Shown here: piece after piece, positions 19,101-22,100 of the stretch
How positions within the stretch are numbered: the stretch's first letter is position 1
Layout: every line of letters begins with the position of its first letter
From: Hormiphora californensis
Lineage: Eukaryota > Animalia > Ctenophora
Direction of reading: 5' to 3'
Assembly: GCA_020137815.1 (NCBI GenBank)
Contig: CM035354.1
Span: 1,240,001-1,304,000 of the forward strand
DNA: 64,000 nt
Translations under genes and position numbers: made by a program
The notes under the pieces: model-generated
Database searches by the model: none
Told to the model about the DNA's origin: nothing
The model's input: the letters and a program-made list of their open reading frames with translations, nothing else

Positions 19101-22100
19101 CTGCAAAATCCCCTGCCAACTTTCCGTCTGACACTCCTCCTGGCAGAACAGTTTCAGACTTTCCAATTAGACGACCTAGCCTCTTCTGCAGCGCTGCAGG
19201 ATCATCTTTAACCTCCTCAAGCTGCTTCCGGGAAAATTCCATCCTCGCCTGCTTATCAATCTTTTCAAAACGCCTCTGTAGTTCCTTGTACTGTATCTTG
19301 TTGAGTCCTGTCTTGTTAGATTCCCAAGCCCTTTCTGCTCTCCTCCTCTCCCTTAGTGCCTCCCGAACATCTTGTCTCTCCCTCCACAACTTAACACTCT
19401 TTACTTCCTTCCTTCTCTTCATCGGTACCAGTTTCCTCACCACCTCCTCTAACGCACTATCATAGATCCTCAAAGCCTCCTCTGCAGTACACCCATCTGG
19501 AACCCGAAGACAAACTTCCTGGAGAGCACGTCTGAATTCCTCTGGATCAACCGAGTTAAAATCTCTGTAGCTGTACATCTTCCTCCACGTCCTATAATCA
19601 TCTCCAGGGGTAGAGAGCTTTAGGTCCACTGTAGCCAAGAAATGGTCTGACAACGTCCCATCCGGAAAGACTTGCACGTTTTCCAGTTTAGTAAGAAAAT
19701 CACGCTGACAGATCATCAGATCCAGAGTTCCTCCCCTCACATGAGTCGGAACTGATGGTACATTCTGCACAAAGTCAAATGAGTCCAAAAGGTGAAGAAG
19801 CTTCCTCGCATAAAAGTTGCCTGAGTCTTGAACCTGGAAATTGAAGTCTCCCATGATCATCGGATTTCCTGTTTTCATGAGAAGGTTCGATATATATCCA
19901 TTAAACTCTTCCAGAAAATTTGCCTCTGTATACCGAGCCTTTCCATTGTAGGGGGGTCTGTATATATTACAGAGCCTCACAAGATCATCATCTCCTCCAA
20001 TAAGGACTTCCTGGACCTGAAAGGTCTTGAACTTGTCTTTAACAGGTGCTCGTTTGACCACTACTCCGTCCCCTATAGAAAACGCCAATGCCACCACCAG
20101 CTCTCTCACTCCTTGGACTAGAGAATACCTGCCATCCATTATCCTGTATTTCCCTGATCTTCGCTGTATCCGTAGCTTTTAGATAAGTCTCCTGTACTAA
20201 GCACACGTCACATTCCTTATCCTCTAGATGAGTCAGAATTCCTCCCGTCTTGTTCATTATAGAATGGACATTGAGCGTCCCGATCCTCCAAGTCGTTTTA
20301 TCCTCAGCTCTTCCATTGCCCTCGTCCGGTAGACATTTTTGTCTCCTTACTCACGCCAGCAGTCCCTATCCATCAGCTTTCCTCGTTCATTGATGTAAAA
20401 AGGACATAAGGTACTCGATGCAAGATGCGTCTTTGAATGCCTCCTATCCTCTCTGCTTCCACTGCCATGACAATTGATACACCTCAGTTGGCTACATCAT
20501 TCTTCCTCTTTTCTTGACACTGTCTCGTCTCATGCTCACCAGCACAGAACGCACAAACTGCCGGACTGTCCTTCTTGGAACACCTCATAGAACCAGCCAC
20601 GTGACCAAACTCCTGACAATGGAAACACTGCACCACATGAAACCGATCCCTAACTGAATGTTGCCTCAGCTTCAGGAAAATCTTGTCCTTATTAGATGAA
20701 ATAATCCTCCGAATACTTGGGGGAGACTTGGATTACAGCAAAACTACCATTCCTGTTGATATGGATAACCTTGATATTTCCACCCTGTCCATGGGCCTTC
20801 TTTATATCCTGATTCTTGTCACTCAGGATTTCCGAAATCAGTTTCTCCTCATCAAGTAAGTCTGCATCCAAATCATTCACCGCAATTCTTGGGTCAAGCA
20901 TCGCTTTCCTCTCTGTAACCGTCTGGATCTCCTGTCCCAAAGCCGGTGAAATAACCGCACCAGCTGCCTTGAGTTGATCATCTGTCTCGAAAGAAAGTCG
21001 GACAGAGCCCTTATTAACAAATGTATTGAGTACAGGGACCCCCTTGAGCGCAGATTCCACCTTTGGCTTCACAAACTCAGCCCACTGCTTCTTCGGACAT
21101 ACCGGAGCCGCAGAATCATCTTCATCCACTTCAAGCTTAATATCCACATAATGCTTCATCGGTAACACCGGTTCTGGTTGATCCTCAATTCCACTGTTCC
21201 CATCCTCTTTCTTATCCAGTATTTTCGATACTTGATCATCAACTCTCCTCTCAATGGTCGCTAGAAGATCAGTCTTCAGGCTTTCAAAACTTTCCTTCAA
21301 TACCTCCAGGGAACCTGCATCCATCGTTGAGCTAGTGCCGCTTTCAAACCGGGTTCTGGAGCTGCTGGGTATCAATGCATATGCTGACACTAGAAGACCC
21401 CATACCTGCTCTCTGGTTGGGCCACTTGGACTGTTAGGAGGAGGAGTAATATCCCCCTCAAGCAGACGATTCAGAACAGAGCTACCCTTACACTTAGAAT
21501 TAAATACCATACTCTCAAGAGCTCTATCAAACTCCTCTCTATTCGTAATACCATGAAAATTGTTCATCCTAAAACACCTGGCTCACACTCCTGGACAGAG
21601 ATAAATCCCAACTCAAAACACTCACAGTACGTTCTTAATAAGCCCACAGAGATTCACGTAACTATAAGATATCGAAGATTGGAAAATAACCTCTAACACG
21701 GATCAATCGATTATAAGTGGAACACTCAAATTAATTTGTTTAAAGTAGTGTTGAAAAGTTTGAAACACAGATAATAATAATAAAAAAACATCACAACGCC
21801 ATCTCAAGGACTACTTCTTTAACCCCTTTAAAAATTTACTAACTAGATATCTACTTACTTTACAAAGCCTCCCACATAGCTATAGCAACGAGACCGACGA
21901 GTGGTCACCAACAAATTTCTCAATGGAAATAATCAAATGACCATCTCAGCTATCTTGACTATCTCTACTACTTTCACTGCCAACATCTCCTATCCTTCGG
22001 CCCTATCCCTTTATAATCTCTCTCCCTGTATCTACCTGTCTCTCCCTACCTATTTCTCTCCCTACCTATTTCTCTCTCTGTCTCTCTCTCTCTCTCTCTC

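Follow-up and report, generated by a model that had tools for sequence, protein, structure and literature searches.

The window analysed here, a stretch of 64,000 nt (64 kb) from the genome of the ctenophore Hormiphora californensis, contains a plus-strand gene of the IP3-receptor family, of which the span 11164-30108 was examined, with exons at 11164-11512 and then from 23920 on. An intron of this gene, flanked by exons on both sides, is occupied by an antisense LINE (16894-21763, minus strand), which is itself lodged within an older, 5'-truncated plus-strand LINE carrying the C-terminal part of a reverse transcriptase (RT); this older fragment covers 15921-16893, is interrupted by the insertion and resumes at 21764. 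Long uninterrupted ORFs, perhaps representing nested genes, are found at 38184-47461 and 53033-54310. Those on the plus strand encode 300, 1230 and 1209 aa, the 1209-aa product being cysteine-rich with a seven-helix-like end, as judged by eye, and a minus-strand ORF encodes a potassium-channel-like protein of 425 aa.

Read along the minus strand, the antisense LINE starts with a leader-like sequence (21725-21766), followed by a T-rich 5' UTR of 157 nt (21568-21724) that is devoid of upstream ATG codons and carries acceptor-like YAG trinucleotides at +31 and immediately before the ORF1 ATG. ORF1 (20270-21567, lower end approximate) encodes C-terminal zinc-knuckle-like motifs, recognized by eye, and its reading frame is open from 21567 to 20692 and broken further on by 1-nt indels. 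ORF2 (17338-20290, start approximate) encodes APE endonuclease and RT domains identified with Pfam and has a frame break near 20070, and the 3' UTR (16894-17337) ends in a (TTA)n tail at approximately 16894-16916. Uninterrupted relatives of both proteins exist, namely, a 429-aa ORF1 product encoded in contig L003 and a 972-aa ORF2 product, P0015, which is 99% identical to that of the window copy. Given the presence of APE and RT domains, the repeat tail, the 4-bp target duplication and the lack of LTRs, the element is, judging by its sequence, an APE-type non-LTR retrotransposon. It may belong to the L2 group, which it resembles in the two ORFs, the APE and RT domains, the short-repeat tail, the short target duplication and, by eye, the C-terminal motifs. 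Neither Pfam nor a sequence search of the PDB gave an informative family for the ORF1 proteins, Pfam detected no further family on P0015 at E<0.01, and none of the 120 P0015 homologues listed bears a clade name. As the preliminary description held, the LINE is full-length, although its reading frames are disrupted by five one-base indels in ORF1 and at the beginning of ORF2. A comparison of the window copy with the majority contig over 2777 nt shows these indels, which coincide with the frame breaks and may be assembly errors, and three substitutions. A fold-back joint with GGGG between its sides, present at 21303-21333 and observed in sequencing runs X1 and X5, probably stems from a different family member that is truncated and inverted within ORF1.

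The boundaries of the insertion were assessed using assembled contigs from sequencing runs, 8 of the 24 listed runs being compared, including DNA run X1, runs X5 and X6 from a second sample, and RNA runs X10 and X17. Such contigs drop rare variants, and a trans-spliced leader is identical in sequence to one derived from DNA. In X1, a 1325-nt contig represents the empty site: it matches 16700-16881 and, after 8 letters that remain unaligned, 21764-21990. Because 16882-16927 was skipped in the alignment as a repeat, these letters were assigned, by their number, to 16882-16889, so that 16890-16893 and 21764-21767 constitute a 4-bp target-site duplication on the 3' and 5' sides of the element, respectively, and 21768-21770 is host DNA. 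With this boundary, the interrupted ORF of the older LINE runs on in frame. The preliminary description had placed the leader 5 nt inside the target duplication, but the empty site rules out the (ATA)n run with this 5-nt spacer as the duplication: the leader directly abuts the target, and its positions 2-4 (21764-21766) are shared with the duplication, forming a 3-nt microhomology. Since this contig is unbroken across the site, and the flank contigs of X5 also stay outside the LINE, the insertion is polymorphic and probably young; it is missing from at least one haplotype in both samples.

The leader-like sequence was first described as a 41-mer located about 160 nt upstream of the ORF1 ATG. 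Exact copies are present at two places in the 64-kb window, at 21725-21765, 157 nt before the ATG, and at 29511-29551, both on the minus strand, whereas no matches were obtained in 100 shuffles. The 44-nt spliced leader (SL) of H. californensis, present on 56% of Iso-Seq reads according to the available part of the genome report (PMC8527503), is identical to 21725-21768 at 43 of 44 nt. Scanning metagenome contigs for exact matches to the last 29 nt of the leader yielded 35 matches at 34 loci, which include 23 mRNA-like starts, 0-21 nt from the contig edge and followed by an ATG after 1-41 nt (their gene names were assigned by eye), two SL RNA gene units and ten ORF-bearing elements headed by the leader. 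The SL RNA genes form a tandem (L022) of two units 778 bp apart, each with a leader exon and a GT donor; the 778-bp unit at L022:693-1513, with its upstream region, donor and intron, provides a usable reference for ctenophore SL genes. The SL exon in this gene is 43 nt long, and the match in the window covers 42 nt of it, positions 2-43 (21725-21766). In RNA runs X10 and X17, loose ends are found at the leader, as on the 5' ends of unrelated mRNAs. In the DNA runs, 18 (X1), 21 (X6) and 26 (X13) contigs follow the leader precisely up to its final base and then continue into sequences that are not similar (agreement 0.39-0.45), which indicates that many different sequences lie downstream of the leader in these genomes. 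Thus, the 41-mer is the ctenophore SL, present both on mRNA 5' ends and in an SL RNA gene. As proposed initially, neither window copy is itself an SL RNA gene: downstream of both, the donor and SL intron are replaced by unrelated sequence. Elsewhere in the window, a lone exact 16-nt match to leader positions 9-24 is followed by unrelated sequence (60818-60833, minus strand).

Elements that target SL genes are well known, among them SLACS, CRE, CZAR and NeSL, which encode a restriction-like endonuclease, and the present LINE could similarly insert in a site-specific manner downstream of SL RNA gene exons or orphan leaders, in which case the leader would belong to the target. Leader copies number in the hundreds (718) in the H. 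californensis genome, at least as given in the accessible text of its description (PMC8527503), which would be in line with such a preference. However, the empty site lacks the leader, which refutes this explanation for the window copy; the flanks upstream of the leader in other elements are mutually unrelated and unlike the DNA upstream of the SL gene; no SL intron follows the 3' end; and the endonuclease is of the APE type. Accordingly, we consider site-specific insertion very improbable. In SLACS, CRE, CZAR and NeSL, a LINE lies beside a leader too, but there the leader is the target, whereas here it arrives with the element.

The second exact copy of the 41 nt was originally placed at the 5' end of an unrelated element. 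The sequence match stands, but the leader is located not at an outer 5' end but at the centre of a fold-back insertion (29410-29662) which, as read in the window assembly, forms a hairpin with perfect 114-bp arms and a 25-nt loop, the leader (positions 3-43) contributing the loop and the inner arm. The fold-back lies just inside an intron of the IP3-receptor gene and has TA at both outer ends. A hammerhead-like catalytic core with stem II is predicted on the plus strand at 29564-29587, 2 nt after the end of the leader in the arm, with a mirror copy on the minus strand (29485-29508); 0.02 such motifs are expected per window, and the Rfam score is 16.1 bits against a gathering score of 48.5. Matches of the fold-back to Rfam miRNA families are all below the gathering score and reflect the perfect hairpin. 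Hammerheads have been linked to Penelope elements, and the fold-back may have arisen by snap-back from a Penelope-like RNA with an SL cap: cDNA synthesis would have proceeded to leader position 3, the end of the cDNA would have folded onto a 3-nt match within the leader, and the cDNA would then have served as its own template. Another large fold-back, with 462-nt arms that are 99% complementary and a 23-nt loop (5248-6194), shows no match to the leader and is MITE-like. The window also carries a third LINE (31845-35279) with an uninterrupted ORF for a 1144-aa APE-RT protein with an N-terminal extension; it has neither a leader nor an ORF1 upstream and, given the absence of ORF1, is probably truncated and hence no counter-example.

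To be a trait of the family, the leader should be found at the same junction in other copies. A single X1 contig (21561-21743, depth 439) runs from the 5' UTR through 21724 into the leader, compared with depths of 427 for the contig at the ORF1 start and 175 at the empty site. The second sample also has contigs that span the junction, 21640-21748 in X5 and 21618-21748 in X6, the latter at a depth of 1360 (empty site, 677) and providing the sole cover over 21652-21693, and RNA run X10 contains a contig across the junction at a depth of 2.1 (21486-21745). Run X17 has no junction contig among those listed and X7 has no cover over 21610-21721, neither of which counts as absence; X7, which contains sequences matching L016 and L022, was not treated as independent. 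A break at 21724, as expected from a leaderless copy, is not seen among the contigs listed for X1, X5 and X6. The 5' UTR thus continues unbroken into the leader in two individuals, and the leader is family-wide, as further illustrated by L003, a 93% identical copy from another assembly. The junction recurs in L003 and in contigs from four runs, three of DNA and one of RNA, and this, together with the shuffle control, leads us to reject an assembly chimera or a chance match of AT-rich sequences, the probability of which is practically negligible, even though the five indels of the window copy may be consensus errors and a chimeric assembly was raised for similar loci by the authors studying Schistosoma mansoni, in the portion of their text available (PMC5832876).

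The same contigs bear on the possibility that the active masters of the family are leaderless, with a normal promoter and an outron, and that leader-headed copies are dead-end products of trans-spliced RNA. The flatworm loci with SL-tagged transposable elements (TEs) were interpreted in this way in the available parts of the respective reports (PMC5832876; PMC12582326), and, as far as the accessible text on Hydra goes, approximately 30% of TE long reads carry an SL (PMC12220107). Furthermore, in X6 the depth drops from 3243 (21576-21635) to 1360 at the junction, and X5 falls similarly, with more than half lost inside the UTR. Yet a near-identical copy with a different upstream sequence should break the contigs that cross 21724, all of which are unbroken in X1, X5 and X6; no loose ends behind 21724, and no sign of an outron-bearing copy, are found among those listed. 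In addition, the family is young and intact elsewhere, as indicated by P0015, and at least one haplotype of each sample lacks the insertion. We therefore regard leaderless masters as improbable.

The leader also heads other retroelements, several of whose families start with it at the same junction. Nine of the ten leader-headed, ORF-bearing elements from the metagenome scan are retroelements by homology or fold. Six of these (L003, L007, L008, L015, L021 and L034) encode homologues of the window ORF1, with pairwise identities of 31-61% among these clade relatives, which represent distinct families. Pfam recognized APE domains in four of the six, L003 matches ORF2, and the start of an APE domain was identified in L021 by eye. 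A different ORF1 followed by an APE-containing ORF2 (Pfam) is found in L020. By contrast, L032 has a single ORF between the leader and a (TAA)n tail; the encoded protein is predicted to adopt a fold similar to that of human LINE-1 ORF1p (E 1e-7 with Foldseek; with VIA, 88 residues aligned at a Z of 10.5 and an rmsd of 2.5), and L016 is homologous to it (27% identity, E 6e-15). These two look like an ORF1-only (half-LINE) family; 14 further relatives of L032:462-1625 and L016 were detected, most on contigs of 1-2 kb. The tenth element, L031, has a leader-headed ORF and is a putative retroelement only. Upstream of the leader, 38-461 nt of mutually unrelated flank are available in six of the ten elements and 1-17 nt in the other four. 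In the case of L020, the flank is 351 nt long, although the four other matches that share its contig-name prefix resemble mRNA starts; L020 may represent either a read-through precursor that had not been spliced or DNA carried over into the sample. A scan of viral contigs produced no leader matches and, among 32 pattern matches to ORF1, no confirmed relatives.

Across the window copy and these ten elements, the first leader base retained is position 2, 4, 2, 3, 1, 3, 9, 2, 2, 3 and 6, and all 11 are identical to the SL gene exon over the remaining 35-43 nt. The junction is unchanged among the window copy, L003, L008 and L034, whereas the first 100 nt after the leader are 0.49-0.79 identical between distinct families of the clade (shuffle baseline, 0.51). 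None of the 11 copies carries a stacked or relict leader. Because the scan required an exact 29-mer, diverged or leaderless families could not appear in it, and its counts do not indicate how common leaders are among LINE families. Directly after the leader, at +1 to +4, T occupies 31 of 44 positions in 11 elements compared with 16 of 92 in 23 mRNAs (p 8e-6), in a post hoc comparison that covers about three lineages and leaves out L003 and L022; elements and mRNAs do not differ at positions 11-30. TTTYAG immediately follows the leader in three of the four elements of the second group (L016, L020, L031 and L032), and L031 aligns as if spliced at this site (+6). Within the first 50 nt after the leader, these four elements have in common a motif that precedes the ATG and is composed of a C-run and a G-run, which might form a stem-loop, although BLAST shows no similarity between the ORF1s of L020 or L031 and the others.

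Taken together, the identity of the 41-mer with the host SL, the exact junction, the empty site and the presence of the leader throughout the family and across families make it close to certain that the retrotransposed RNA began with the SL, as the preliminary description proposed. None of the three observations named there as contradicting the proposal was made: the 41-mer is not missing from mRNA 5' ends and SL RNA genes, it did not turn out to be the terminus of an independent small repeat in arbitrary contexts, and other copies of the family do not lack it. How subsequent RNAs come to carry the leader is a separate question. On balance, the LINE is likely copied from leader-capped RNA, and it is somewhat more probable than not that its leader is replaced in each round by trans-splicing onto the leader's own last AG. 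In such a cycle, reverse transcription would come within a few bases of the cap, and pairing of the resulting cDNA end with the target would involve a microhomology of about 3 nt, as represented by leader positions 2-4 shared with the duplication. The new copy would then be transcribed from upstream, either by read-through or owing to an internal signal that starts transcription upstream, and the DNA leader would serve as a ready-made AU-rich outron. Attack of the SL RNA on the terminal AG of the leader, possibly aided by the U-rich or TTTYAG sequence just downstream, would regenerate the same 5' end and produce a capped, unit-length RNA. Only the terminal AG could restore the junction, because the use of an upstream AG would stack leaders and that of a downstream AG would shift the junction. 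Renewal is favoured by the fact that 10 of the 11 insertions lost leader bases and yet distant families display no cumulative erosion.

Several observations speak against renewal. The leader ends in GAG, whereas CAG is found at all seven cis acceptors of the host gene that were examined by eye; competition would be expected from stronger YAG sites at +6, at +21 to +35 and immediately upstream of the ATG; and the window copy has no sense host transcript, its antisense orientation excluding read-through from the host gene as a source of RNA. TTTTAG is kept just before the ORF1 ATG in five of the seven clade elements. No joints to the downstream YAG sites are present among those listed, but L031 aligns as if spliced at +6. 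In the germline of Caenorhabditis elegans, weak proximal acceptors are preferred next to consensus ones, according to the part of the study available (PMC4484395). The layout with TTTYAG after the leader, which resembles such weak proximal acceptors by way of analogy only, counts in favour of renewal, as does the excess of T at +1 to +4.

Alternatively, the leader might have been captured once or a few times and inherited as DNA, with an internal promoter that starts at its first base and selection maintaining it as an initiator or translation signal. LINEs typically have internal promoters, and L1Tc, which resides in an SL-using host, reportedly makes unspliced transcripts from such a promoter. 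This explanation avoids the weak GAG acceptor, could account for the motifs shared by the 5' UTRs as promoter elements, and is compatible with the exactness of the leaders, which the scan preselected. However, distant families end within the same few leader positions even though 10 of the 11 copies lack 1-8 bases; the leader matches the present SL gene exon exactly, while the adjoining UTR has diverged to background; the same constraint would have to act on at least three unrelated kinds of element; and YAG sites further down such a transcript would be expected to undergo trans-splicing and to be lost. We consider inheritance of the leader as DNA rather unlikely. Renewal by trans-splicing might also extend beyond the LINE clade. 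It is possible, if on the doubtful side, that several unrelated ctenophore non-LTR lineages have abandoned a promoter-defined 5' end, with the leader acting as a self-renewing acceptor, and that many leader loci are retroelement heads. Two-ORF LINEs, ORF1-only elements and, probably, Penelope-like elements would be involved, and the weak terminal AG would be licensed by a downstream U-rich or TTTYAG signal and preferred in the germline.

Retrocopies tagged with an SL are already known. In the accessible parts of the flatworm reports, six SL exons merged with TEs are described in S. mansoni as possibly trans-spliced and retro-transcribed or possibly chimeric (PMC5832876), and another flatworm study lists 597 loci at which partial leaders adjoin LTR and LINE elements (PMC12582326). 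As in the present case, a genomic leader is joined there to LINE or LTR elements, with trans-spliced transcripts as the supposed origin, but full or partial leaders are mentioned in passing and not as a family trait in these texts; here, by contrast, a near-complete leader forms the 5' end of whole families, at one junction and with an empty site. The SL-relict retrogenes of dinoflagellates, to the extent that the report is available (PMC12014239), also derive from retroposition of SL-capped RNA, and the DNA leader is trans-spliced again; however, the acceptor for the new leader is an internal AG, and host genes retain relics of the old one, in some cases stacked, whereas here the element itself is autonomous and relics are absent. 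TE RNAs of Hydra likewise use host trans-splicing, but at the RNA level, and leaders at element termini in DNA are not described in the accessible text (PMC12220107). Nor is there anything on leader-headed elements in the available parts of PMC12460157, PMC4558846, PMC5619915, PMC3156134 and PMC12221973. Within the literature covered, from which most subscription journals are excluded, we found neither leader-headed LINE families in ctenophores nor a relic-free renewal cycle, and a leader fixed without relics as the terminus of several animal retroelement lineages was not found in print.

The exact rebuilding of the 5' end is an old problem for LINEs, to which two answers are known: internal promoters and self-cleaving ribozymes. 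Pr77 of L1Tc/ingi combines an internal promoter with an HDV-like ribozyme, and the ribozymes of R2 generate a defined 5' end from a longer co-transcript. These elements face the same need for a defined 5' end but meet it with their own promoter or ribozyme and an unspliced RNA, whereas here a host leader marks the end. If the proposed cycle is correct, replacement of the DNA leader by the host SL of which it is a copy would represent a third answer. Some of the 718 leader copies in the H. californensis genome, for which no tie to mobile elements is stated in the available part of the report (PMC8527503), would then be accounted for as well. SL-based gene annotation can mistake the heads of retroelements for SL genes or first exons; conversely, the leader labels full-length copies and thereby offers a simple way to catalogue young elements.
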